Below are positions 1 to 54,140 of a DNA stretch of 64,000 bases, piece after piece (the first letter of the stretch is position 1; each line of letters starts with the position of its first letter). Origin of the DNA: an uncultured Bdellovibrionales bacterium (GTDB taxonomy: Bacteria > Patescibacteriota > Minisyncoccia > Moranbacterales > GWC2-37-73); contig CAZCMV010000003.1 of the NCBI GenBank assembly GCA_964500125.1, forward strand, positions 11,523 through 75,522, in the 5' to 3' direction. The translations under genes and the position numbers were made by a program. Under the pieces are notes generated by a model. The model saw only the letters and a program-made list of their open reading frames with translations. It had not been told where the DNA came from and did no database searches.

Positions 1-2211
1 GAAGCGGTGGAGACGGTAAAGGGGCCGCTTTTGATTATTGCCGGAGCGGGATCAGGCAAGACCAAGACGTTGACACACCGCGTCGCATATTTGATTCAAA
101 ATGCCAAAGTGAGGTCGCAAAATATCTTAGCGGTTACTTTCACCAATAAAGCTGCGCAAGAAATGCGCGAACGAATCGGCAAAATCCTTGGTGTTGTTGG
201 TGATGTTAGGGGGATGCGGGGAATGTATAATTCGAAGCTGCCACTGATCGGAACATTCCATTCGATTTGTGTGCGGATTTTGCGCAGTGAAATTGAAATG
301 CTCGGTTATGCCAAGTCATTTCACATTCTGGATGATCAAGATCAGCAAGCTTTGATGAAGCGAGTGATGAAAGAATTGGAAATTGATACAACCCAGTTTC
401 ATCCCAAAGCATTTTTAGGTGCGATCAGTAATGCTAAGAATGATTTGATTGAGGCTGAGCAATTTGCCCAAGAGGCGAACGGTTATTACGAAGAACTGGT
501 TGCGAAAACTTTTGTTAAATATCAACAAGAATTGAAAGCAAGCAATGGTTTGGATTTTGACGACATTATTTTGCTGACCGTGAAGTTGTTCAAAAAATTT
601 CCGTTGGTGCTGGAAAAATATCAGCTTATTTTTCAATTCATCATGGTTGATGAATATCAAGATACGAATAAGGCGCAATATGTGCTGGTGAATTTGTTGG
701 CGAGCAAACATCGCAATTTGTGCGTCGTGGGGGATGACTGGCAGTCGATTTACAAATTTCGCGGGGCAGATATTAAAAATATTTTGGATTTCGAAAAGGA
801 TTATCCGGAAGCAAAAGTAATTCATCTGGAACAGAATTATCGTTCATCGCAGATCATATTGGATGCGGCATATGGTGTGATCTCCAAAAACATCAATCGC
901 AAAGATAAAAAATTGTGGACAGAGAAAAAAGAAGGACACTTGATTACTTCATATGAAGCGGAGGATGAAAAAGAAGAAGCGGAATTTATTGCAAGAGAAA
1001 TAATGAATGCCAAGGGCACAAAACGCTATGCTGACTATGTTGTGCTTTATCGCACTAATGCCCAGTCACGTATGGTGGAAGAAGTTTTTTTGCGCCGCTC
1101 GATTCCGTATCGCATTATCGGGGGCATCAAATTTTATCAACGCAAAGAAATCAAAGATATGGTTGCCTATTTGCGTTTGATATTCAATAATAGCGATGTT
1201 GTTTCTTTGGAACGCATCGTCAATGAACCGAAACGCAACCTTGGAAAAGCGACGCTTGATAAATGGGTGAAGATTGCAAGAGAAATGGAAATGAATCCAA
1301 TTATAATGGGATATCGGGGAGACCTGGGAAATCAGGTTGATTCAGGATTGGGAAAAGTTAAAGTCGATGCGATTAAAAAGTTTTGTGAGTTTATTGTGAG
1401 GATGGATGAAATAAGAAACAGGATATCTTTGTCTGATTTTATTCAAAAAGTTTTTGCGGAGAGTGGCTATGAAGCGATGTTATTAAAAGAGGGAACAGAA
1501 GGAGAGGTTAGATGGGAGAATGTGAGGGAGTTAATTTCAGTTGCACAAAAATATGACAGTGAAGAAGCTAATGATGTGGAGGATAAATTAGCTGCTTTTT
1601 TGGAAGAGGTTGCGTTGGCTTCGGATGTGGATAATGTGGATCAAAATCAGGATGCAGTTCACCTTATGACCATGCACAGCGCCAAGGGCTTGGAGTTCCC
1701 AACAGTTTTTATTATCGGGCTTGAAGAAGGAATTATGCCGCACTCGCGTAGCCAGCTTTCTTATGAAGATATGGAAGAAGAGAGGCGACTCATGTATGTG
1801 GGGCTCACACGTGCCAAAGAAAAAATATATTTGTTGTTTACCAGGCAGCGAACTATTTTTGGTGCAACGCAAGTGAATCCACCGTCGAGATTTTTGGATG
1901 ATATACCGAAGGAGCTAGTGGAACGATGTGAACAAGAGATGAAATACAAGATGGAAGAAACAAGAAATAAGAAACAAGAAACAAATAAATTTCAAATTTC
2001 GAATTATAAATTTTCGAACAAATCTCAGATCTCGACTCCCAAATCTCAAGTCTCAAGCAGGGCTTCTTTCCGAGATGGAGAGAAGGTGGCGCATGGGGAG
2101 TTTGGAGAAGGAATTGTGGTTTCTTCGGATGAAGAGATTGTGACTGTGGTTTTCAAAAAAGCGGGAATAAAAAGATTAAGCAAGGAATATGCAAAATTGA
2201 AGAAAATTTAA
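1..2211 (+). CDS. pcrA: ATP-dependent DNA helicase PcrA/UvrD family. 5'-partial: the reading frame is already open at nt 1.
   Basis: Walker A 'AGAGSGKTKTLTHRVAYL' and UvrD helicase motifs throughout. C-terminal 'GEKVAHGEFGEGIVVS' Tudor-like tail typical of PcrA/UvrD. Confidence 0.85.
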   Translation, partial: EAVETVKGPLLIIAGAGSGKTKTLTHRVAYLIQNAKVRSQNILAVTFTNKAAQEMRERIGKILGVVGDVRGMRGMYNSKLPLIGTFHSICVRILRSEIEMLGYAKSFHILDDQDQQALMKRVMKELEIDTTQFHPKAFLGAISNAKNDLIEAEQFAQEANGYYEELVAKTFVKYQQELKASNGLDFDDIILLTVKLFKKFPLVLEKYQLIFQFIMVDEYQDTNKAQYVLVNLLASKHRNLCVVGDDWQSIYKFRGADIKNILDFEKDYPEAKVIHLEQNYRSSQIILDAAYGVISKNINRKDKKLWTEKKEGHLITSYEAEDEKEEAEFIAREIMNAKGTKRYADYVVLYRTNAQSRMVEEVFLRRSIPYRIIGGIKFYQRKEIKDMVAYLRLIFNNSDVVSLERIVNEPKRNLGKATLDKWVKIAREMEMNPIIMGYRGDLGNQVDSGLGKVKVDAIKKFCEFIVRMDEIRNRISLSDFIQKVFAESGYEAMLLKEGTEGEVRWENVRELISVAQKYDSEEANDVEDKLAAFLEEVALASDVDNVDQNQDAVHLMTMHSAKGLEFPTVFIIGLEEGIMPHSRSQLSYEDMEEERRLMYVGLTRAKEKIYLLFTRQRTIFGATQVNPPSRFLDDIPKELVERCEQEMKYKMEETRNKKQETNKFQISNYKFSNKSQISTPKSQVSSRASFRDGEKVAHGEFGEGIVVSSDEEIVTVVFKKAGIKRLSKEYAKLKKI

Positions 2212-4751: not shown

Positions 4752-6800
4752 GTGCATAGCTACAAAAAAATAGTTGAAAATAAAAATCACCCATTATTTC
4801 CGTTTATGGATTTTTTCCGCAGAAATAGAAAAACAGCCATATCATTACTCGCTATTTTTATCGTGAGTTTTTTGGGTGTATTCACAACTTTCAATCACGC
4901 TGACGCTGTGTTAATCCCTACTTATTATGCCGCTAAAGTTCTCACATCGGGGGCTTCTGGTGCTGGTGAAGCTATGGGGAACATGCTAGTAGTTGGCATA
5001 AAATACATTCTTGGTGCAATTCTTACTTTTGTCGGATGGCTGTTAATAATACCGGGAGTAATGCTGGATGCTCTTTTGAAAGTAGAAAACAATGCTTTAT
5101 ATTTGGACAGCACGGCAGTGCGAGAAGTTTGGGTAATGGTGCGCGATTTTCTCAATCTTTTTTTCATTTTCACCCTTCTTTTTTCAGCTTTTGCAACCAT
5201 TTTTCAGATCGAAAAATATCATATCAAAAAAATTATCGTCAAAATAATCATTATGGCTCTTTTGGTGAATTTCAGCTTTCCCATAGCCAGGTTTTTTATT
5301 GATATTTCTAATGTGATGATGTATTGGTTGCTCAATAATATATTTGGTGGTTCAGAAGGAGCAAGCATTGCTGCAACGCTAGCGTCAAGTTCTGGCTTAA
5401 AGGACTTGCTTATTCCTGAAAGAGCTGCTGAATATCAAGTACCGTATCTTATCGCAGCAATAATATTTACTTTTATCTTCGGCATTACTTTAATGATGAT
5501 CGCGGTATTATTTTTAGTAAGACTTATTGTTCTTTCTGTTTTGGTGATGTTTTCACCGGTTGGTTTTGTGGGTTATGTTTTTCCAGACACAGCAAAATAT
5601 GCCAAACAATGGTGGGATATGCTCTTGAAATATTCTTTTTTTGCTCCAATAATGACTTTCGGATTAGCAGTCACACTTAAAATGATGCAAAGTCTTGGTG
5701 CTAATAGTAGTGCCATGAGTAGTTTCAGAAAAGCGGCGGAAGATAACAGTGCAAATGTTGGAGCTGACGCAAATTGGATAGCGGCGGCAGCTTTTTTCAT
5801 TGTTCCGATAGTGATTCTCTGGATGTTCATGGGAGTTGCGCAGAAATTCAGCATTGAATTTGCAGGTGATGTACAGAAAAGGGGACAGGATTTGGCAAAA
5901 TGGGCCGGAAAACAACCATGGAGAGGAACAAAAGCATTGGTAAATGCCACTGGTGTCCCTGGTGGCGTAAAGGCGGGAATAGCAAAGTTCCAAAAGAGCG
6001 GTACACTTTTTGGTGTTAAAGTTTCGAGATATGGCGGAACAGATGCGCGTGAGGCGCGTGAGGCCCAATGGGCGGGATTGATGACGGGTGGTTCTTCTGG
6101 TATGAGATCTGCTACAGAAAACAGGAGGCGCAAACTTATTGCGGACAAAATGGAAGAATATAAAAAATCAGGACTGGGAGCAAGTCAGATTGAGAGAGAT
6201 CTTACGTCTAATGATGAGGTTACACGAATTGCGGCCGCGATGCACATGAATGAAAAAGGCGATCTCAATAATATTGATAGAATGAAAAAGGCACTTGCTG
6301 CTGTAGGTAATGATGCTGAAGCGCGAACTAAGATTGTTGATAAAATCGAAAATGTAGGCGCTATTTTCGAGAATAAGGATCATTACAATGATGCACTGGT
6401 AAGTGCACTTGATGGGATAGATGTGTCAACTTCTGATGGAAAACAAAAGGCTGATAAGATAAGAAAAAGTTTTGAAGCGAAGATGAAGAAAGAGAATCGC
6501 ATGGATCTTATCTTGGATCATGACGTGAAGTATGGTGTGCTTGATGCAAATTCATTTGCTTATGGAAAAACTGAAAAAGAAATATATGAAGAGCGTCTGG
6601 GCTCCCTTAATGCTGAAGGTCTTGGAAAGCAGCACAAGTTGCATAGCAAAATAGGAACAAATACTAATCTTCAAAACTTTATATTAGACAATATCGCTGG
6701 CGATTATCAGCGACATCAGGAAATGCACAGACACCTGAGTATTTCAAATCAAAGAAAATACGCTGACGAAGGTTTTGATCCAGGACCTACTCCTCCATAA
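4752..6800 (+). CDS. Polytopic membrane protein, VirB6/TrbL-like (putative type IV secretion / DNA-transfer channel component), with a C-terminal hydrophilic tail.
   Basis: Signal-like N-terminus and at least 6 predicted TM helices, then a charged roughly 300-aa tail. Lies immediately upstream of three pilin-like genes. Family assignment is by architecture only. Confidence 0.35.
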   Translation: MHSYKKIVENKNHPLFPFMDFFRRNRKTAISLLAIFIVSFLGVFTTFNHADAVLIPTYYAAKVLTSGASGAGEAMGNMLVVGIKYILGAILTFVGWLLIIPGVMLDALLKVENNALYLDSTAVREVWVMVRDFLNLFFIFTLLFSAFATIFQIEKYHIKKIIVKIIIMALLVNFSFPIARFFIDISNVMMYWLLNNIFGGSEGASIAATLASSSGLKDLLIPERAAEYQVPYLIAAIIFTFIFGITLMMIAVLFLVRLIVLSVLVMFSPVGFVGYVFPDTAKYAKQWWDMLLKYSFFAPIMTFGLAVTLKMMQSLGANSSAMSSFRKAAEDNSANVGADANWIAAAAFFIVPIVILWMFMGVAQKFSIEFAGDVQKRGQDLAKWAGKQPWRGTKALVNATGVPGGVKAGIAKFQKSGTLFGVKVSRYGGTDAREAREAQWAGLMTGGSSGMRSATENRRRKLIADKMEEYKKSGLGASQIERDLTSNDEVTRIAAAMHMNEKGDLNNIDRMKKALAAVGNDAEARTKIVDKIENVGAIFENKDHYNDALVSALDGIDVSTSDGKQKADKIRKSFEAKMKKENRMDLILDHDVKYGVLDANSFAYGKTEKEIYEERLGSLNAEGLGKQHKLHSKIGTNTNLQNFILDNIAGDYQRHQEMHRHLSISNQRKYADEGFDPGPTPP

Positions 6801-6896: not shown

Positions 6897-8348
6897 ATGT
6901 ATAATCAAGAAAATAATCAAAAAATAACAAATCCTATATATTTTCCCATGATCACCCCTTCAGTATTTGGAAGGGCAGATTCTGCTGATGTTAGAAAAAA
7001 AAGATGGGATATTTTTAATGCTTTGCCAGAACAAGAAAAGGATAAAATCCTTGCTCCTAATGTTGCGTTTACATTGAAAAATGTGGCTGAAAAATATGAT
7101 CTTTCCGATGAAGAGGCAATGAAAATATCAAGATTGGTGCGCGAACTTTTTTTTAGAAACATCTCTAAGGAAAATATAGCGGTTGAACTGCAAAGAAGGA
7201 TCTCAAGATTGACCAATTCCGAATTAAAAGACGTGGAAAAGATTATCATATACCAAATATTAACAGCAAATACTTCTCAAATAAAAGAAGCATCTTTTAA
7301 AACAACCAATATAATCAAATTATCTTTGGAAAATGCGCTTTCTCGATATCCAAATCTTGGTGAGCAATCAATAACAGCAAATCAGTTGCGATTACGGATT
7401 ACTCCAAATCCAGTGAAACCCTCAATCAAGAATTGGATCAGTGATTATTGCGAACAAATGGGATCGGGAAAACATGAAGCATTTGATCGTGGAAATTATC
7501 TTTTTCATAGTGAGAACACAAAAATTCTGACTGCAATCGAAAGGAAGAAACTTTCACTTGTGCTTAAATCCTTGGACGAAGGCATGTTGCTTAATGTTGA
7601 TCCGGAAAAACAAGAAGTTGTGTTTGAATTAGAGGGCAGCTCTAATATTCAAATGGAAACTTCTGTTTTGCGTCAATCAATAAATCATCTTGCGAGTCGA
7701 GGTGGGCAAATGAATAGAAATGATGAGAACATAGCAAGGCGAGAAGTTGGCAGCGGACAAAAACAAGATACGAGAAAAACAGGACCCGGAACGGGTGGTA
7801 TTGGACAGGAGGGTGGTTTCATGGATGGAATGAGAACATTGAAAGAAAAAAAAGAAGTTAAAGAAACAAAAGAAATGGAAACCTCTGCGCAAACAATATT
7901 CAGACAAAGCAATTTGCGTAATTTTTCAAATCAAAATACACGTGTTACACAACAATCTGTTGACATGACTGGAGTTAATGCAATGTCGCCAAATCAAGAA
8001 ACAAAAATAAATCAGTTTTTTGGAGAAAACTCCGTGTCTGATTTTGTCGGTAAGGGAAAAACGGAAAAATTTTCGCCGAAACCACAAGTGTCTGTTCATT
8101 CCACGGCTGTTCCGTCGAACTTTGCTGATGTTATACAAAAAAAACCAAGCAATCAAACACAAGAAAAAATAATCGAAAATGCAGCAGGAGCCGCCACGCC
8201 TGCCAGGATTGTTCCAAAATCAATGTTGTCGCAAAATGCTAATGGAGGTAGTGTAAGTTTTTCTTCGCCGCAACAATTGCCCATCGAAAAAAAACAGATG
8301 CCTTCAAAAAAATCACCTTTTAGAATTGTTCCGCATGGCGATTTGTGA
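6897..8348 (+). CDS. Hypothetical protein, 483 aa; low-complexity, Q/N/K-rich C-terminal half.
   Basis: Long ORF with no recognisable motif. Sits between the VirB6-like gene and the pilin genes. Confidence 0.5.
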   Translation: MYNQENNQKITNPIYFPMITPSVFGRADSADVRKKRWDIFNALPEQEKDKILAPNVAFTLKNVAEKYDLSDEEAMKISRLVRELFFRNISKENIAVELQRRISRLTNSELKDVEKIIIYQILTANTSQIKEASFKTTNIIKLSLENALSRYPNLGEQSITANQLRLRITPNPVKPSIKNWISDYCEQMGSGKHEAFDRGNYLFHSENTKILTAIERKKLSLVLKSLDEGMLLNVDPEKQEVVFELEGSSNIQMETSVLRQSINHLASRGGQMNRNDENIARREVGSGQKQDTRKTGPGTGGIGQEGGFMDGMRTLKEKKEVKETKEMETSAQTIFRQSNLRNFSNQNTRVTQQSVDMTGVNAMSPNQETKINQFFGENSVSDFVGKGKTEKFSPKPQVSVHSTAVPSNFADVIQKKPSNQTQEKIIENAAGAATPARIVPKSMLSQNANGGSVSFSSPQQLPIEKKQMPSKKSPFRIVPHGDL

Positions 8349-8389
8349 TGAATTGTGAATTGTAAAATATGAATTATGAATTAATCAAT
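8344..8389 (+). repeat. Heptamer-period tandem repeat (tgaattg/atgaatt units) spanning the stop of the upstream gene and the start of pilin gene 1.
   Basis: tgtgatg aattgtg aattgta aaatatg aattatg aattaat. Confidence 0.6.
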
Positions 8390-8653
8390 ATAGCGTACGC
8401 AGGAGTGATTTCAAGTGCGCCAACAATTTCTCAGATAGGATTACGCATCTTGAATTTTTTGTTGTCTATTTTTTCTTTTATTGTTATAATAACAATGTTG
8501 ATATCTGGGGTTATGTATTTTTTTGCTGCAGGTAATGAAAATATGATTGAAAAAGCAAAGAAATCTTTTCAATGGGGAATTGTTGGAATGATTGTAGGGA
8601 TAACAGGATTGATAATAATAAGATTTATTTCAGGAATTTTGAATGGTAATTAA
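8369..8653 (+). CDS. Small TrbC/VirB2-like pilin, paralogue 1 (CPR-type T4SS pilin-like).
   Basis: 94 aa with two hydrophobic helices. Shares the motif 'L..WLL....GV...VISG..Y..S.GD..MI..AK......VG..VG..GL.II' with the next two genes. Confidence 0.5.
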   Translation: MNYELINIAYAGVISSAPTISQIGLRILNFLLSIFSFIVIITMLISGVMYFFAAGNENMIEKAKKSFQWGIVGMIVGITGLIIIRFISGILNGN

Positions 8654-9780: not shown

Positions 9781-9897
9781 TCATAGCCTTACAAAATGTG
9801 AACCTGTTAGGAATTTACGAATGTGCAAATATAAAAGCATTGAAATTAGCATGCTGGTAAATTCGTATTAAGTGTATAATTAATAGAATATAAATTT

Positions 9898-11154
9898 ATG
9901 CCAAGAAAGAAAAAACAAGAAGAAGAATCGCAAAGTCAGAGCGGAAGACTCGGCGAATTCGGCAGTGCTATTATGCAGATTGCTGAAGAAAAAGGAATTT
10001 CCAAAGACAAAGTTATTGAAACTATCGAGGCTGCTTTGGCCGCCGCCTATAAAAAGGATTATGGCAAGAGGGGCCAGAGAATTCGGGCAGAATTCAGTCC
10101 GGTTTCGGGAGATATGAAATTCTTTTTAGTGAAAGATGTTGTTGATGAAACTGTGCGCGATTTTGCCGAGCCTGAAAGCGAGGAGGAAGAAAAAAATGTA
10201 CGTGAAAGTATTGAAGAAGAAATGGCTGAAGGCGAAGAAAAATTGCCCAGATATAATGTGGAAAGAGATATGCTCCTGGAAGAAGCAAAAAAGATCAAAA
10301 AAGATGCACAAATTGGCGATGTGATTGAACTCGAGCTTGAGTCTCATAGTGATTATGGTCGTGTAGCTGCTCAAACCGCCAAACAAGTCATCATCCAGCG
10401 TATTCGTGAAGCTGAGCGTGATGCTATGTTTTCGGAATATAAAGAAAAAGAAGGAGAAGTGCTTAGCGGAACAGTACAAAGAATTGAAGGACGTAATGTT
10501 TATATTGATCTTGGTAAATCAGTCGGTGTGCTTTTACCGAACGAGCAAGTACGAGAAGAACGTTATCGCATAGGACAGCGTTTGAAAGTATATATGCACA
10601 GAGTCGAATCTGATCCTAAAGGTCCTGGTATAATATTGAGTCGTACGCATCCGGAGATGGTGCGTAAACTCTTTGAATTGGAAGTCCCGGAAATATTTGT
10701 TGGTACCGTTGTTATAAAATCAATCGCACGCGAGGCTGGCTCAAGGTCTAAAATAGCGGTAGTTTCAGAAGAAGAGGGAATTGATCCAATTGGTTCATGT
10801 GTGGGACAAAAAGGAACACGCGTACAGGCTGTCATTGATGAGCTTGGTGGAGAAAAGATTGATATCATCGAATGGAGCGAGAATATTGCCAAATTTATAG
10901 CTGCAGCTTTGAGTCCTGCCAAAGTTCTAAATGTGGAGGCAAATGAGGAGAAAAAAGAGGCTACAGTTACGGTTCCGGAAGACCAGCTTTCTTTGGCTAT
11001 TGGCAAGAAAGGACAAAATGTCCGTTTGGCAGCTAAGCTTACCGGTTGGAAGATCGATGTTCTTGGCGGAGGGTCCGTGCAAGATAATGTAGAAGTAGAA
11101 GATGAAAATGCGGAAGAACAGGGGGATGTGGAAAGCGAGGAAGTTTTAGAATAA
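9898..11154 (+). CDS. nusA: Transcription termination/antitermination factor NusA.
   Basis: S1 and KH regions with 'ILSRTHPEMVRKLFELEVPEI' and 'GSCVGQKGTRVQAV' signatures. Acidic insertion near the N-terminus and an acidic C-terminal tail. Confidence 0.85.
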   Translation: MPRKKKQEEESQSQSGRLGEFGSAIMQIAEEKGISKDKVIETIEAALAAAYKKDYGKRGQRIRAEFSPVSGDMKFFLVKDVVDETVRDFAEPESEEEEKNVRESIEEEMAEGEEKLPRYNVERDMLLEEAKKIKKDAQIGDVIELELESHSDYGRVAAQTAKQVIIQRIREAERDAMFSEYKEKEGEVLSGTVQRIEGRNVYIDLGKSVGVLLPNEQVREERYRIGQRLKVYMHRVESDPKGPGIILSRTHPEMVRKLFELEVPEIFVGTVVIKSIAREAGSRSKIAVVSEEEGIDPIGSCVGQKGTRVQAVIDELGGEKIDIIEWSENIAKFIAAALSPAKVLNVEANEEKKEATVTVPEDQLSLAIGKKGQNVRLAAKLTGWKIDVLGGGSVQDNVEVEDENAEEQGDVESEEVLE

Positions 11155-12335: not shown

Positions 12336-13628
12336 ATGATTAAATCAGAAGTGAAAAAATTAGACAAATCGCAAGTGGAGATAGTTATCTCTGTTTCTTG
12401 GGATGAATGGCAAAAATATTTGGAAATGGCAATTGCCGATATCTCCAAGGAAATCAAGATCGAAGGTTTTCGCAACGGAAAGGCGCCAAGAAAGATGATT
12501 GAGCAGAAAGTTGGAACAGCAATGATTTTGGATGAAGCTGCCAATAAAACCGTACAAAAAACATATCCTGCGGTTTTAGTGCAGCAAAAAATAGAAGCTA
12601 TCGGACAGCCAAAGGCTCAGATTAATAAGCTTGCCGAGGGTAATGATCTGGAATACGCAGTAGTTACTTCAGTTATGCCTGAAATTAAAATAAATCCTTG
12701 GAGAGAAAAGGCTAAAAAGATAAACAAGGAATTTGCCAAACAAGAAACTGAAGTAAAAGATGAGGAAATCAAAGAAGAGCTCAAGACCTTGGCCAATAGT
12801 CGTGTGCAACTGGCTACTGTTGAACGGGAGGCTAAAGATGGCGACAGTGTAGTTATCGACTTTAAGGTTTTACAGGATGGTGTGCCAATTGAACACGGAA
12901 CTGCGCAAGATCACCCGTTGATTTTGGGAAAGAAAGTTTTCATCCCAGGATTTGAAGAGCAGGTTGTAGGGATGAAAAAAGGAGAAGAAAAAGAATTCGT
13001 ACTAAATTTCCCGGATTCCTATCATGAAAAAAGTCTAGCTGGCAGGCCGGCAACTTTTCAAGTCAAACTTAAGGAGGTCCAAGAAAGGAAAACTCCGGAA
13101 ATCACAGATGAATTTGCCAAATCTTTGGGAAAGTTTGAAAATGTAGATGCCTTAAAAAAGAATATTCGCGAAGGCGTTTTGGAGGAGAAGAAGCAGCACG
13201 CTCAAGAAGAAAGACGCGCGAAACTTTTGGAAATGCTTGCAGAATGCGCAGAGGTGGAGATCCCTGAGATTCTCATTGATGAGGAAGTGAAAAAAATGTT
13301 CGGTGAATTTGAAATGCAGCTATATGGTATGGGCATGGACATGGAAAAATATTTGGAGCATACGAAGAAAAAACGTGAAGAAATAGAGCAAGAATGGCGT
13401 CCGCAAGCGCAGAAAAGGATTGTTATTGCTTTAGCTTTGGAACAACTGGCAAAAGATGAAGAAATAAATGTGCCCAATGAACGTATAGAAGAAGAAATGA
13501 ATAAAACCATGGCTCGCTATAAGGACATCAAAGATGTTAAGAAGAATATCGATATTCAGAAAGTATATACTTATGTCAAAGGAACTTTGATGAATGAGAA
13601 AGTTTTTGAATTGCTGGAATCAGTATAA
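12336..13628 (+). CDS. tig: Trigger factor (ribosome-associated chaperone / PPIase).
   Basis: N-terminal ribosome-binding 'GFRNGKAP' signature, FKBP-like middle domain. Followed by clpP in the conserved order. Confidence 0.85.
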   Translation: MIKSEVKKLDKSQVEIVISVSWDEWQKYLEMAIADISKEIKIEGFRNGKAPRKMIEQKVGTAMILDEAANKTVQKTYPAVLVQQKIEAIGQPKAQINKLAEGNDLEYAVVTSVMPEIKINPWREKAKKINKEFAKQETEVKDEEIKEELKTLANSRVQLATVEREAKDGDSVVIDFKVLQDGVPIEHGTAQDHPLILGKKVFIPGFEEQVVGMKKGEEKEFVLNFPDSYHEKSLAGRPATFQVKLKEVQERKTPEITDEFAKSLGKFENVDALKKNIREGVLEEKKQHAQEERRAKLLEMLAECAEVEIPEILIDEEVKKMFGEFEMQLYGMGMDMEKYLEHTKKKREEIEQEWRPQAQKRIVIALALEQLAKDEEINVPNERIEEEMNKTMARYKDIKDVKKNIDIQKVYTYVKGTLMNEKVFELLESV

Positions 13629-13665
13629 ATCGAAAATCAAAATGCAAAAATCAAAATGAGTAACT
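13627..13665 (+). repeat. Heptamer-period repeat tract (aaaatca / aaatgca units) in the tig-clpP spacer.
   Basis: aaatcg aaaatca aaatgca aaaatca aaatgag. Confidence 0.5.
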
Positions 13666-13769
13666 TCGACAAATTGAAGATGGGCAATGAAAATGTAAAA
13701 TTCGGCGTTATTTTAATTTTGAATTAATATTTTGCACGTTGAGATTTGCATTTTGTATTTATTAAGATT

Positions 13770-28789: not shown

Positions 28790-28925
28790 TAAGAAAAAAT
28801 TTCGAATTTCTAATTTTGAATTTCGAATCAGTTTTGAATTGTCAATGTTTGAATGTTTCAAAATTCAACCAGTAGGATTTTATTCAAAATTTGAAATTCA
28901 TAATTTAAAATTCTATAAACTATTT
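28790..28925 (+). repeat. Heptamer-period tract (ttcgaat/tttgaat/ttcaaaa units) filling the pyk upstream region.
   Basis: ttcgaat ttctaat tttgaat ttcgaat ... tgaatgt ttcaaaa ttcaacc ... caaaatt tgaaatt cataatt taaaatt. Confidence 0.55.
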
Positions 28926-30356
28926 ATGGATAAGCGAACAAAAATTGTTGCCACATTGGGGCTTGTGTCTGATACCAAAGAAGTGCTCAAAAAAATGATT
29001 GATGCTGGGATGAATGTGGGCAGACTCAATTTTTCCCACGGTTCATATGAATGGCATGGCAACATCATCAAAGTTTTGCGTGAACTTTCTGAAGAGAGTG
29101 GTCAATCAATCGGAATCTTGGCTGATCTTCAAGGACCACGCATTAGAACAGTAGTTGAGAAAGAGATAGAGATAGAGAAAGGGGAAATGGTGCAGGTTGG
29201 CGATATATCTGTTTTGGAAAATCACAAATCACAAATCTCAAATCTCAAATCTTTCCTGCTTGATGTTCCGAATATTGTAGATGATATTGAAGTGGGGCAT
29301 GAAATCTTAATTGAGGATGGGATTATTAAAGTTGTTGTGAAGGAAAAGAGTGAAGGAATGCTTCTTTGCGAGGTTGTTGATGGGGGAACGGTGAAAAATC
29401 ACAAAGGCGTAAATATTCCTGATGCCACTTTGCACATTGATCCGGTTACGGAAAAAGATGAAAAAGATTTGGAGTTTGTACTAAAAGCAGAGGTTGATTT
29501 TGTGGCACTTTCTTTTGTTAGTGATGGTAAGGACATTGAAAATCTTCGTGACCGCATGAAGAAAATTTTGGGCAGAGAGGATAATCTACCCCAAATAATT
29601 GCCAAAATAGAACGCAAAGAAGCGATCAAGAATTTGGATGATATTATTGAACATACTGATGCGGTTATGGTAGCACGTGGTGACCTGGGAATCGAAATGG
29701 ATGGCACGAAAGTGGCAGTACTCCAAAAAGAGATAATTAAAAAATGTTTGAGCAATATGAAGCCAGTGATTGTGGCTACTCAGATGCTAAATTCTATGAT
29801 TGAAAATCCTCGCCCAACTCGCGCCGAGGTAAGTGACGTGACCAATGCCGTCATTGATCATGCTGATGCCGTGATGCTTTCAGGAGAATCTGCAAATGGT
29901 AAATACCCAGTGGAAAGTGTTGAAGCTATGGCTAATATCATTCGTAACACTGAAGAGTCTCCTTTTGATGATCTGATAAAACCACTTTCCTTGGAATGCA
30001 AATCAGACTTTGCTTGTTTGGTCAAAGGCGCCTACGAGCTTGCAAAAAACAGTACTGCTTCGGCGATTATGCTTGCCAGTGTGAGTGGCTATACTGCTCG
30101 CCTTGTGTCTCATTTTCGTCCGGAACAGCAAATGTTGGTAGTAACCAACAATATTCTTACATACAGACAGTTATCTTTAGTATGGGGAATAAAGCCTTTT
30201 ATGACCGAGGAGAAAAATTTGCTTTCTGCGATTGATTTTCTTGTCCAGGCAAGTAAAAGAGATGGACTCTTGAAAGATGGACAAAATACTGTTATTATAC
30301 TCGGCAGTGTTCCGGGAGGCGAAAGAATGCAGCTGGTGGGGGTAAAAAGCGTTTAG
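28926..30356 (+). CDS. pyk: Pyruvate kinase.
   Basis: 'MDKRTKIVATLG', 'RLNFSHGS', 'MVARGDLGIE' signatures. Start set at MDKRTK. Confidence 0.85.
   Translation: MDKRTKIVATLGLVSDTKEVLKKMIDAGMNVGRLNFSHGSYEWHGNIIKVLRELSEESGQSIGILADLQGPRIRTVVEKEIEIEKGEMVQVGDISVLENHKSQISNLKSFLLDVPNIVDDIEVGHEILIEDGIIKVVVKEKSEGMLLCEVVDGGTVKNHKGVNIPDATLHIDPVTEKDEKDLEFVLKAEVDFVALSFVSDGKDIENLRDRMKKILGREDNLPQIIAKIERKEAIKNLDDIIEHTDAVMVARGDLGIEMDGTKVAVLQKEIIKKCLSNMKPVIVATQMLNSMIENPRPTRAEVSDVTNAVIDHADAVMLSGESANGKYPVESVEAMANIIRNTEESPFDDLIKPLSLECKSDFACLVKGAYELAKNSTASAIMLASVSGYTARLVSHFRPEQQMLVVTNNILTYRQLSLVWGIKPFMTEEKNLLSAIDFLVQASKRDGLLKDGQNTVIILGSVPGGERMQLVGVKSV
29219..29253 (+). repeat. Five tandem 7-bp units (aaatcac x2, aaatctc x2, aaatctt) in frame inside pyk, encoding ...NHKSQISNLKS...
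   Basis: ggaaaatcacaaatcacaaatctcaaatctcaaatcttt. Confidence 0.7.
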
Positions 30357-30357
30357 T

Positions 30358-30438
30358 ATTTTGTATTCAGTATTCAGTATCCAGTATTATTATAGTATGG
30401 AATCCATATACATCATACTATATACTAGATACTGTTTT
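30358..30438 (+). repeat. Heptamer-period tract (ttcagta / atactat units) between pyk and tRNA-Ser.
   Basis: ttttgta ttcagta ttcagta tccagta ttattat agtatgg aatccat atacatc atactat atactag atactgt. Confidence 0.5.
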
Positions 30439-30525
30439 GGAGGAGTCGCATAGCGGTTTAGTGCACCACCTTGGAAAGGTGGCATATCCGAAAGGGTATC
30501 GGAGGTTCGAATCCTCTCTCCTCCG
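30439..30525 (+). tRNA. tRNA-Ser (anticodon GGA), class II with long variable arm.
   Basis: Acceptor GGAGGAG/CTCCTCC. Anticodon stem CCACC/GGTGG, loop TTGGAAA. Variable arm ATATCC-GAAA-GGGTAT. T-arm GGAGG-TTCGAAT-CCTCT. Confidence 0.75.
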
Positions 30526-30821
30526 CTTTAAGTTTGGTGCATAAAGTGTGCAAAAAATGCGGACATTTTTTCAAAGAAGACGAGGATGTCTGTAATTCTT
30601 GGGAAAAGAAAGGAAACCAATAACTAAAATTCTCAATAAAAAACAATAGAAATAATAAAAAAGATGAGTTTGTTAAATTTACTTATCAGAAGCGGAACAA
30701 TGAGGTTTCGCTTAAATTTTACCTTAAATATTGCTATATTGCGGAAAATGCTTCATGATGGGGATGGTTGAAATTTTCTTGTTTCAAATGAGTATTAAAG
30801 GGCAATAGCAACACGGAAATA

Positions 30822-32660
30822 ATGCGTTCAGATGTCGAAGAAATAAAATCAAGGCTTAATATTGTCGATGTTGTCGGCGAATATGTCAGATTAACTAAGG
30901 CAGGGGCAAATTGGAAAGGCCTCTGTCCTTTTCATCATGAAAAAAACCCTTCTTTTATGGTACACGAGGAAAAGCAAATTTATCATTGTTTTGGTTGTCA
31001 AAAAGGCGGTGATATCCTTTCCTTTATCATGGAAATAGAGGGTTTGGAGTTCCGTGAAGCGCTTAAAATATTGGCAGAACGGGCTGGTGTGCAGCTTAGT
31101 AATCAAGCGCCTCAGCAAAAAACAGATGACAAGAAAAAGATTCTAGAAATAATTGAATTGGCAACCAAATTCTATGAAGTTCAACTCTGGAAAGGTGTTG
31201 GCAAAGAAAATGTGATGGGTTATTTGCGTGAGCGTGGCTTAATCGAAGATACCATTCGCAATTTTCGTTTGGGTTTTGCGCCACAGGGCTGGCGTAATGT
31301 GCTTAATTTTCTGACTGAAAGAGGATATAAGGTGGAAGATATTGAAAGAGCAGGACTGATAATCAGGAAAAATCCTAAATCCGAAATCCTAAATCCTAAA
31401 CAAATTCAAAATTCAAAATTCAAAATTCAAAATTCTTTTTATGATCGTTTTCGTAATCGCATTATGTTTCCCATTTGTGATGGTATGGGCAAGGTGATTG
31501 GATATAGCGCACGTGTGGCGCCGGGAGATGATGAATCACAAGCCAAATATATCAATACTCCGGAAACGAGTGTTTATCACAAAAGCGAGGTGCTGTATGG
31601 CTTACATCTTGCCAAGCAAGCAATTAAACAAAAGAATGCTGTATTGTTGGTGGAAGGTAATATGGATGTGATCGCTTCACATCAAGCAGGTCTTAGCAAT
31701 ACGGTTGCTGTTTCGGGTACCGCGCTTACATCAAAACAGATAGATATTCTCAAAAGATATGCTAAAAACATCCAGATGCTTTTCGATATGGACAGTGCAG
31801 GAAATCAAGCGCTCAATCGTAGTGCTGATTTGGCCTTTAATAAGGATGTAGAAGTGTCTGTGGTGCGACTGGGGGAAGGAAAAGATGCAGCTGATGTGGT
31901 ACAAAAAGATGCTTCCAAACTTGTTTCGGCTGTTGAGGCAGCAATGCCGGCGATGGAATATTTTTTTCAAGCGGCTGTCTCAGAATATGATTTGCGTGAT
32001 CCACAACAAAAAAAGCAGTTTGTCCAGGATTTGGGGCAGCATGTGGCAAATATGGAAAACCAAATCGAAAAAATGCATTGGATTAAAAAAATAGCTCATG
32101 AAATAGATTCAGCGGAAGAAACAGTGTTGGAAGCGGTGTCTTCTCTTAAAGAACACAATCCCTATCGGCATGAAGAAACAAATGATGTCGTAGTTGAAGA
32201 TAATTCATTTGCTGAGCGTAGCGATTTAGTTAAAGAAAAATTAATAGGACTCATGCTTAGTGATAAGGACGCGTGGCAATGGTGCGCTGAAGAATATATT
32301 ACGGATCCGTATGTTAAAGAAGACAAATTTTTGCAAACACTTTTCAAAGAAGGTGCAAAACATGGATATGCGCTCGAACAGATGTTATTTTCGCTTGAAG
32401 ACGAGAAACTGCGGGGCAGGTTTGCTAAGCTGGCTTTCGATAGCAAATACCGTTTTGAAAGTGCAGATGCAATGGAAAATAGCAGCGAAGAAATAAAAGA
32501 ACAAATAAAGCAATATATGGCACAATTTGTCAAAGAATTGCAAAAACAGAAATTGCGTAGTATCATAAGAGATATCAAAAAAGCCGAACAGTCGGGTGAT
32601 AGAAACCTGCTCGGTGAGCTAATGAGTGAGTTTACAAAACTTTCTCAAGAATTAACTTAG
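30822..32660 (+). CDS. dnaG: DNA primase DnaG.
   Basis: Zinc ribbon 'CPFHHEKNPSFMV...YHCFGCQKGGD'. TOPRIM 'LLVEGNMDVIASHQAG', 'DMDSAGNQA'. Confidence 0.85.
   Translation: MRSDVEEIKSRLNIVDVVGEYVRLTKAGANWKGLCPFHHEKNPSFMVHEEKQIYHCFGCQKGGDILSFIMEIEGLEFREALKILAERAGVQLSNQAPQQKTDDKKKILEIIELATKFYEVQLWKGVGKENVMGYLRERGLIEDTIRNFRLGFAPQGWRNVLNFLTERGYKVEDIERAGLIIRKNPKSEILNPKQIQNSKFKIQNSFYDRFRNRIMFPICDGMGKVIGYSARVAPGDDESQAKYINTPETSVYHKSEVLYGLHLAKQAIKQKNAVLLVEGNMDVIASHQAGLSNTVAVSGTALTSKQIDILKRYAKNIQMLFDMDSAGNQALNRSADLAFNKDVEVSVVRLGEGKDAADVVQKDASKLVSAVEAAMPAMEYFFQAAVSEYDLRDPQQKKQFVQDLGQHVANMENQIEKMHWIKKIAHEIDSAEETVLEAVSSLKEHNPYRHEETNDVVVEDNSFAERSDLVKEKLIGLMLSDKDAWQWCAEEYITDPYVKEDKFLQTLFKEGAKHGYALEQMLFSLEDEKLRGRFAKLAFDSKYRFESADAMENSSEEIKEQIKQYMAQFVKELQKQKLRSIIRDIKKAEQSGDRNLLGELMSEFTKLSQELT
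31369..31428 (+). repeat. Tandem 7-bp units (aaatcct x4 then aaattca x4) in frame inside dnaG, encoding NPKSEILNPKQIQNSKFKIQNS.
   Basis: aaaaatcctaaatccgaaatcctaaatcctaaacaaattcaaaattcaaaattcaaaattc. Confidence 0.7.
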
Positions 32661-53990: not shown

Positions 53991-54140
53991 AAGATACAAG
54001 AAACAAGATACGAAATACAAACAAAACTCAATATTCAAATTTAAAATATTCAAATCGCCCTGGTTTGGTTTTTTGTTTTTTGGAATTTGTAATTTGTTTG
54101 TATCTTGGTTCTCGTATCTTGTCCCTTGTGCCCCGTATCT
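53991..54140. repeat. Two blocks of heptamer-period repeats in inverted orientation (gatacaa/gaaacaa/gatacga... versus ...gtatctt/ggttctc/gtatctt) flanking an AT-rich core. Potential long imperfect hairpin.
   Basis: The left block is approximately the reverse complement of the right block; both are 7-bp periodic. Confidence 0.5.

Follow-up and report, generated by a model that had tools for sequence, protein, structure and literature searches.

We analysed a 64,000-nt stretch of DNA from an uncultured Bdellovibrionales bacterium (GTDB lineage Patescibacteriota, Minisyncoccia, Moranbacterales, GWC2-37-73; GenBank assembly GCA_964500125.1, contig CAZCMV010000003.1, positions 11,523 to 75,522 of the forward strand), hereafter the window, and found that its pyruvate kinase gene (pyk) carries, in frame, a real 35-base tract of tandem heptamers. 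This tract is probably a heptanucleotide microsatellite that is translated within a tolerant surface loop of the B (lid) domain of the enzyme (Pyk) and needs no function of its own. Positions are numbered from the first letter of the window, and the argument turns on three features:

29219..29253, plus strand: tandem heptamer array of 35 nt in pyk, made of two AAATCAC units, two AAATCTC units and one AAATCTT unit.
28926..30356, plus strand: pyruvate kinase coding sequence, 476 amino acids plus stop, recognised by Pfam, homologue and orthologue N-terminus matches.
29205..29261, plus strand: hypervariable indel hotspot, codons ~94-112 of the Moranbacteria Pyk B domain, delimited with an AlphaFold model, an alignment of 120 orthologues and a length histogram.

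A first-pass annotation, made without database searches, had described five heptamer units in frame in pyk, and direct reading of the sequence, Tandem Repeats Finder (TRF), shuffled sequences and Pfam all agree with it. TRF reported the array at 29219-29252 with a period of 7, 4.9 copies, 96% matches and a score of 54. Searching the window for the pattern AAATCNCAAATCNC with at most one mismatch yielded 7 matches against 1.32 expected, a number reached in 0 of 100 shuffles, and our own scan for periods 4-15 retrieved arrays at period 7 (3) and period 10 (1) only, with none in shuffles. The tract reads gaa aat cac aaa tca caa atc tca aat ctc aaa tct ttc (E98 N H K S Q I S N L K S F110) and thus encodes residues E98-S109 (ENHKSQISNLKS) plus the first base of F110; the peptide NHKSQISNLKS given by the annotation is correct in frame from the ATG at 28926. 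With head-to-tail 7-nt copies beyond chance, the tract is a heptanucleotide simple sequence repeat (SSR) in the sense of Mrazek 2007. The same DNA, identical base for base, is present in an independent assembly, L081 (SRR16951081), and the tract is therefore not an assembly artefact. An origin as chance low-complexity sequence or as an assembly or sequencing artefact might be invoked for an A-rich tract in an AT-rich genome (39% G+C), but is barely credible: shuffles never reproduced the tract, dozens of independent metagenome assemblies have arrays of the same kind at this site, and period 7 alone was enriched. We rejected it.

The host gene has the make-up of a pyruvate kinase, with the barrel (PF00224, E=8.7e-112), the C-terminal alpha/beta domain (PK_C, PF02887, E=4.6e-22) and full-length similarity to solved enzymes (Geobacillus 2E28, E=4.4e-98, residues 1-467). 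Its nearest named homologues belong to Candidatus Moranbacteria (Parcubacteria/Patescibacteria group). The start codon is most likely the ATG at 28926, because the N-terminus that it would give, MDKRTKIVATLG, matches the N-termini of orthologues. The open reading frame (ORF) finder had placed the start at a TTG at 28839, 87 nt 5' of this ATG, and the region 28839-28925 overlaps an inverted spacer array described below; a 503-aa version of Pyk (P0150; NCBI and Logan) has 27 additional N-terminal residues. The extension from the TTG is probably a start-codon mis-call.

To place the tract in the protein, we used an AlphaFold model built on 60 orthologues (mean predicted local distance difference test score, pLDDT, of 84), in which the small beta B/lid domain shows a strand at 88-93, a helix at 94-99, a loop at 100-108 and a strand at 109-112. 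The loop has the lowest confidence of the domain (pLDDT <50 at residues 101-103; mean 65 over 101-110) and the tract-encoded segment is predicted to be disordered. HMMER aligned residues 98-109 to residues 97-108 of E. coli PykF, within the B domain of that enzyme, which we take to span residues ~71-170. The B-domain loop had been named beforehand as the expected site, and both model and alignment point to it. The further suggestion that the segment is an insertion relative to canonical pyruvate kinases stands only in part: the tract stretch aligns to PykF without a gap, one 3-residue gap lying earlier in the B domain, while a 7-residue gap separates it from Geobacillus 2E28, and loop length differs among the solved pyruvate kinases. 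Judged from these alignments, the segment sits in the expected loop, which exceeds that of solved pyruvate kinases by only 3-7 residues, and is barely an insertion against canonical enzymes. Moreover, a length of 35 nt is not divisible by 3, so the tract of repeats cannot coincide with the "insertion". Finding the same segment encoded by non-repetitive DNA in unrelated taxa would have told against the idea; E. coli has a segment of equal length that is non-repetitive, but its sequence is dissimilar, so this applies only weakly.

Among relatives, the Pyk B-domain loop is one of a few permissive hotspots at which arrays turn over between lineages. A scan of genome contigs with the whole of Pyk returned mostly unrelated phyla and three close loci, and alignment of the B domain on metagenome contigs worked better. 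In 120 Pyk orthologues the flanks are conserved (...SD[VI] and FLLDV...) and the intervening stretch spans ~25 residues. Many orthologues have loops that are three-frame read-outs of heptamers, as checked on DNA: NFQFPISNFQ corresponds to AATTTCC, KSEILNPK to AAATCCK, NFKFEILNFK to AATTTKA and QTTDNKQLTT to ACAACNN. Designating loci by number, the pyk site holds four units of AATTTCC in L001 and many other loci, AATTTTC/AACTACC in L003 (Pyk 86% identical to that of the window), AAATCCG/T/A in L082 (84%) and ACAACNN in L084 (75%). AAATCTC also occurs at this site in L116, L119 and L124, whose B domains are only 58-63% identical, and as a decayed copy in L099. Long forms of Pyk (487-488 aa) carry two abutting arrays, and that of the window one. 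On a simple neighbour-joining tree of the pyk loci, array types are scattered and interleaved with array-free orthologues. Most relatives thus have heptamers of other units at the site, and several distant lineages have AAATCTC, decayed or perfect. The annotation had proposed that repeats of the kind found in spacers colonised the gene; repeats of the same class (~30-35 nt) do occur in the spacers next to pyk and elsewhere in genes of the window, but this is no fresh colonisation of a gene that had been untouched.

Loop length was measured as the distance between the GPRIR and LIEDG motifs, which falls into main classes of 51/52, 55-58, 69 and 76 residues. At 58 residues, the Pyk of the window exceeds the shortest class among Moranbacteria by 6-7 residues and falls 11 short of the long class that is commonest. 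Lengths form mainly two series with 7-residue (21-nt) steps, 51/58 and 55/62/69/76, and other differences occur too. Units change in concert, as AGTTTCC in three copies in L105, AATTTTC in four copies in L114, and AATTTCC versus AATTTKA inside one 90% cluster, and in the window the conserved K-S-F codons (aaa tct ttc) of the right flank supply the AAATCTT unit as a local seed. Polymorphism in multiples of 21 nt had been anticipated within populations. The 21-nt steps were seen between species, and the within-population part did not hold: a cluster of 23 sequences (>=90% identity; 15 inspected) had one constant length at the pyk site, and two assemblies of this organism were identical. No heptamer indels separated genome pairs at 99.5-100% identity either, a comparison that is therefore uninformative.

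A separate observation concerns a femAB-like gene 7 kb upstream of pyk. Loci L095/L098 and L096/L097 are ~99% identical around pyk and ~82% identical at this gene, where L095/L098 have an AATTTCC composite and L096/L097 have AAAGTCG in 4.7 copies. The contrast suggests recombination or very fast divergence.

Further arrays were located in the window, mostly by TRF, and are supported as indicated. Those in coding sequence are:

31370..31400, plus strand: AAATCCT/AAATCCG heptamer array, 4.4 copies, in frame in dnaG, first half of the insert NPKSEILNPKQIQNSKFKIQNS (TRF, period scan).
31402..31435, plus strand: perfect AAATTCA heptamer array, 4.9 copies, in frame in dnaG, second half of the same insert (TRF, period scan).
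1955..2054, plus strand: three abutting arrays (AAGAAAC, AAATTTC and AAATCTC-like), in frame in the linker of pcrA/uvrD between helicase core and tudor domain (TRF, Pfam).

The dnaG insert extends a loop of the catalytic core of primase; L003, L082 and L084 have a shorter insert or none, a difference of 10-16 residues, and 120 orthologues vary at this site. In PcrA, Pfam places the end of UvrD_C at residue 613 and a C-terminal tudor domain at 691-733. The arrays in spacers are:

28797..28828, plus strand: AATTTCG-type spacer array 5' of pyk, left arm of an inverted pair (TRF; fold z = -3.75).
28882..28913, plus strand: inverted heptamer array, right arm of this pair, 5' of the pyk start codon (inverted repeat; fold z = -3.75).
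30354..30390, plus strand: GTATTCA-type array starting from the pyk stop codon, left arm of an inverted pair (TRF; fold z = -2.93).
30408..30437, plus strand: inverted partner, ATACTAG-type, ending 2 nt short of tRNA-Ser (30439-30526) (TRF, inverted repeat).
53991..54120, plus strand: AAGATAC-type spacer array (53991-54039) and its inverted copy (54072-54120) (fold z = -5.22).
13627..13760, plus strand: AAATCAA-type spacer array starting from the trigger factor stop codon, with a weaker inverted partner at 13739-13760 (fold not significant, z = -1.44).
8348..8391, plus strand: ATGAATT-type spacer array starting from the stop codon of the ORF at 6897-8348 (TRF).

The spacer arrays of the window often begin at stop codons or precede start codons, and their inverted pairs fold into long hairpins; the arms at 28797-28828 and 28882-28913 are 84-88% complementary. 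No Rfam family matched the spacer hairpins. The ORF at 6897-8345 (483 aa), which has a heptamer array directly at its stop codon, had no Pfam match.

To assess how general these arrays are, we took a census of 77 non-redundant related loci (891 kb), all centred on pyk and hence not a random sample of the genomes, using longest-ORF approximations as gene calls and a detection threshold of ~19 nt. Period 7 accounted for 92 arrays and no other period between 4 and 12 for more than 6, and by TRF heptamer arrays occur at 22.4 per 100 kb compared to 5.8 per 100 kb in unrelated bacteria; the excess of period 7 expected of a heptanucleotide SSR is thus lineage-wide. Array lengths peak at 30-34 nt (52 of 92; mode 31) and exceed 35 nt in four only. 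Putative coding sequence, which makes up ~87% of the DNA, contains 70 of the 92 arrays (76%), and spacers contain 20. Among the perfect coding arrays, 27 of 36 consist of four units plus 2-6 nt, and two imperfect coding arrays have ~seven units; spacer arrays range from 19 to 39 nt. Base frequencies on the sense strand are A 0.48, T 0.28, C 0.19 and G 0.05. The consensus unit lacks a stop codon in all three frames in 62 of 70 coding arrays, compared to 9 and 8 of 20 spacer arrays for the two strands. In the AAATCCT arrays a G stands exactly at the would-be in-frame TAA, giving KSEILNPK in the dnaG of the window, where the T-to-G variant unit can be read directly, and in the pyk of L082, L112 and L113. 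Units are diverse, with 46 different ones among the 92 arrays, and an inverted partner (>=75% complementarity, within 200 nt) was found for 5 of the 20 spacer arrays and for none of the 70 coding arrays. Loci with heptamer arrays from outside the candidate phyla radiation (CPR), from Chitinophagaceae and Ignavibacteriales, have longer arrays that lie mostly outside ORFs.

The census also covered other orthologous hotspots, namely the femAB-like gene after its YFYIPRGP motif, a small protein with an LGDVP motif (flank gtgatgtaccaa) and a loop of murE, each with a different heptamer array of ~4.4 units per lineage (L001, L003, L082, L087, L089, L093, L095, L096, L114, L121, L123, L131, L142, L151). 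One array, L001:4991, can be compared with an array-free orthologue, L158, that has a single AACAAG seed, and with L123, which is exactly 21 nt shorter.

The reading that we favour is as follows. Replication slippage favouring 7-nt units would create and re-homogenise short heptamer arrays throughout the genomes of Parcubacteria/Moranbacteria. As 7 is not a multiple of 3, an array would be read in all three frames and a change by one unit would shift the frame. In essential genes, selection would then let through only units free of stop codons in every frame, frame-preserving length changes (typically three units, 21 nt or 7 residues) and sites where additional hydrophilic residues are harmless. 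The outcome would be short arrays of ~4 to 5 units, frozen in length within populations and turning over between lineages at a few permissive hotspots. Slippage, which the annotation had also put forward, appears the most economical generating process, and the encoded loop may well be neutral. The order of the blocks in the window tract (AABBC) is the expected product of unit-wise duplication, and slippage followed by selection fits the concerted unit changes, the local seed offered by the K-S-F codons, the 7-residue steps in loop length, the contrast in length spectrum between coding and spacer arrays, and the comparison of L001:4991 with L123 and L158 (+21 nt, with a single-unit seed in the array-free orthologue). 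Copy number varies between species, in 21-nt steps and with concerted unit changes, and shows no length variants within populations; a slip by one unit in pyk or dnaG would be a lethal frameshift, and array length would therefore not vary within populations.

Several observations weigh against this reading. Since length was constant within populations, both in the cluster and between the assemblies, slippage was never directly observed here. A one-step jump of three units from ~1.4 units is mechanistically awkward, as the intermediates are lethal frameshifts. Comparisons with empty sites give insert sizes of 21, 27, 30 and 33 nt rather than 21 alone, and several empty sites are without any unit. 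Each of the four closest relatives has its own unit at the pyk site, and distant lineages share identical ones. Across 8 lineages, AATTTCC arrays agree codon for codon at 280 of 280 pairs, whereas in the flanks only 52.6% of codons are the same at conserved residues and nucleotide identity is 62-82%; although these 8 loci were picked for having the peptide, which biases their ascertainment, synonymous drift should have broken the repeats across such divergence. Composite arrays with tails or junctions recur in different genes, and spacer arrays rarely exceed 5 units though they are free of the frame constraint. A pure model of "+21 nt from a local seed" fits L001:4991 versus L123 and the pyk length classes but not the differences of 27, 30 and 33 nt, and we discarded it. 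Slippage leaves unexplained the DNA-perfect identity of arrays over deep divergence and the composites in different genes, which hint at copying between sites.

Copying of this kind is the basis of a rather unlikely alternative, in which the arrays would exist beforehand as modules of ~30-66 nt without a stop codon in the frame read and would be copied from one permissive site to another, through ectopic template switching, gene conversion between arrays or an unknown mobile-element mechanism, with slippage secondary; the pyk tract of the window would be one such module or a remodelled remnant. It is suggested by a composite of (AATTTCC)x4 and a ~30-nt tail, CAATTTCCAATGAYCAAATTTCAAATGAY, that occurs in the pyk loop, the murE loop (L089:4460, L151:6134), the femAB-like gene (L095:2162) and a spacer (L102). 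A tail-only profile built from pyk copies alone matched the murE tail of L089 (E = 5.8e-4, a value that is optimistic for A-rich low-complexity sequence), and its other weak matches all adjoin arrays. Likewise, the dnaG insert of the window matches the pyk site of L113 with 91% identity over 45 nt (query nt 4-48), spanning the junction of array 1, AAAC and array 2, and the AAGAAAC-AAATTTC junction in the pcrA of the window matches the femAB-like site in L131; in several of our comparisons the flanks are only 72-85% identical. Modules would also account for different cassettes at one site in close relatives and the same cassette in distant lineages, for arrays that are DNA-perfect despite saturated synonymous divergence and for the several empty sites devoid of any unit, and the inverted doublets formed by spacer arrays resemble REPINs, doublets of repetitive extragenic palindromic (REP) sequences that form hairpins. 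Against it, unit sharing within one genome is not above that between genomes (4 of 81 pairs versus 3.8%, permutation p = 0.375), and we dropped within-genome homogenisation of units, with ectopic conversion as the main driver, as unsupported. With 46 units in 92 arrays, no common termini or target-site duplications were seen, and no transposase or reverse transcriptase was found in the 10 ORFs scanned against Pfam, most ORFs of the window being outside that scan. The limited vocabulary of units can be explained by the stop-free constraint and AT-rich composition, and arrays resembling the pyk tract itself are confined to the orthologous site, apart from a degenerate AAATCTC run in pcrA. In its fullest form, which we hold to be somewhat more doubtful still, Parcubacteria/Moranbacteria would harbour undescribed coding-compatible miniature modules of 30-66 nt (~four heptamers with or without a tail), copied between loops of essential proteins (pyk, dnaG, murE, femAB-like, pcrA) and forming inverted doublets in spacers, and the pyk tract would be a hotspot cassette and not a locally grown microsatellite.

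That the array or its peptide is kept for a function, be it in the movement or an interaction of the B-domain lid or as a nucleic-acid motif in mRNA or DNA, we regard as improbable. AATTTCC arrays are exactly conserved in DNA across deep divergence, the same three units recur at the pyk site in two deep clades, and spacer arrays form stable hairpins just 3' of stop codons and 5' of start codons, all of which would suit a function. A role in translational regulation has been proposed for the TAACTGA heptamer repeats of Beggiatoaceae (PMC4679880), and we took it as support by analogy. On the other hand, many Pyk orthologues are array-free at the site, close relatives have unrelated units and lengths, units are very diverse, the encoded loop is predicted to be disordered, arrays occupy variable loops or linkers of unrelated proteins, and no Rfam family was matched. 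We also considered a DNA uptake signal and dropped it, the units being far too diverse, and rejected phase variation, given the constant length in the 23-member cluster (15 inspected) and between assemblies and the essential nature of the genes.

Arrays of this kind can be compared with known systems. That heptamer repeats are over-represented in bacteria has been reported before: among long SSRs, the heptanucleotide class is the commonest in the majority of bacterial genomes, and this has been put down to polymerase slippage, promoted by how much DNA the enzyme holds (Mrazek et al. 2007, as relayed in PMC4679880 and PMC4692102). PMC4692102 also reports inverted pairs of heptamer repeats for Xanthomonas and Nostoc. 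Bacterial heptanucleotide SSRs, such as the cyanobacterial short tandemly repeated repetitive (STRR) sequences, GGGAATC in Xanthomonas and TAACTGA in Beggiatoaceae, likewise consist of tandem 7-nt units with period 7 favoured over all others, and share with our arrays a patchy distribution among lineages, inverted pairs in spacers and slippage as the proposed cause. They differ in being mainly intergenic and often longer (up to dozens of units), with one or few units dominating each genome, whereas here about three quarters are coding, lengths peak sharply at ~4.4 units, and diverse units recur at hotspots in essential housekeeping genes. The loci from outside the CPR agree with the published picture, with long arrays mostly outside ORFs. 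Two of them, L078 (12172-12284 and 13538-13613; an Ignavibacteriales metagenome-assembled genome) and L046 (Chitinophagaceae), have long intergenic arrays of CAATGAC/AATGACC with up to ~12 units. When rotated, this unit corresponds to the reverse complement of TTGGTCA, the STRR unit of cyanobacteria; AATGAYC also occurs within the pyk "tail" of Moranbacteria.

The (AAGACTC)n contingency locus neuO of E. coli K1 keeps its frame with multiples of three units, three units giving a 7-residue peptide repeat. With neuO and the 7-bp repeats upstream of hmw1A in H. influenzae our arrays share a heptamer repeat inside or beside a gene, but those are long, hypervariable arrays by which accessory surface genes are switched on and off within a population, while ours are short, invariant within populations and found in essential genes. 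No copy-number polymorphism was seen, and the hosts (pyk, dnaG, pcrA, murE, femAB-like) are not accessory, surface or virulence genes, unlike those of phase-variable loci.

A further comparison is with the Rickettsia palindromic elements (RPEs), which Ogata and colleagues reportedly described in 2000 as selfish DNA lying in frame in protein-coding genes. As in RPEs, repetitive DNA lies within essential ORFs as peptide segments at tolerant surface places. Related copies occur in different genes for two composites, AATTTCC in pyk, murE and the femAB-like gene and AAATCCT-AAATTCA in dnaG and pyk; the window tract itself has matches only at the orthologous site and the degenerate run in pcrA, and shared units are not in excess within a genome. 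However, RPEs are palindromic, 100-150 bp long and of one sequence family, whereas our arrays are tandem, 30-66 nt and of many units; the pyk tract is 35 nt of direct tandem repeats, and none of the 70 coding arrays has an inverted partner within 200 nt. Spacer arrays recall REP/REPIN sequences in that they are often inverted doublets with hairpins right after stop codons, but they lack a shared consensus, and most copies are intragenic and single, as is the pyk tract; doublets are confined to spacers. No REP-associated tyrosine transposase (RAYT, a Y1 transposase) was seen, nor any transposase among ten ORFs of the 64-kb window scanned against Pfam.

Small GC-rich palindromes (for example TCCGCCAGCTGGCGGA, CCGCCTTTGGCGG and CCTGCCTCGCCGGCAGG) were noticed in frame inside or beside heptamer arrays, at L093 ~4890-4906, L117 ~9890-9990, L136, L163 ~1190-1240 and in the DnaG protein P0273, where they encode peptides such as PSASWRT and PPAGGQ; they look like a second kind of mini-insert in the same permissive loops. 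Those nested in the arrays of L093, L117, L136 and L163 recall the cyanobacterial small dispersed repeats (SDRs), which Elhai and colleagues are said to have described in 2008 as nested in repeats. SDRs are cited in PMC3116915.

Overall, the interpretation offered by the first-pass annotation is partly supported. A search for literature on heptamer repeats in CPR, Patescibacteria or Moranbacteria found nothing, and the form seen here, short arrays of near-constant length, mostly intragenic, in essential CPR genes and with composites shared between genes, appears to be undescribed. If the reading is true, small-genome uncultured bacteria tolerate a constant supply of 7-nt arrays inside essential enzymes, and the arrays would provide a natural map of insertion tolerance in pyruvate kinase, primase, MurE and PcrA. 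Their stop-free units and frame-keeping lengths would also illustrate a mutational process being filtered by reading frame and stop codons. The arrays bear, too, on the old question of why 7-nt units dominate bacterial tandem repeats. For the annotation, alignment and phylogeny of CPR proteins they carry a warning, in that such loops would lack residue-by-residue homology and identical peptides can have parallel origins. Should the arrays turn out to be copied between genes, they would represent a new kind of miniature mobile DNA.

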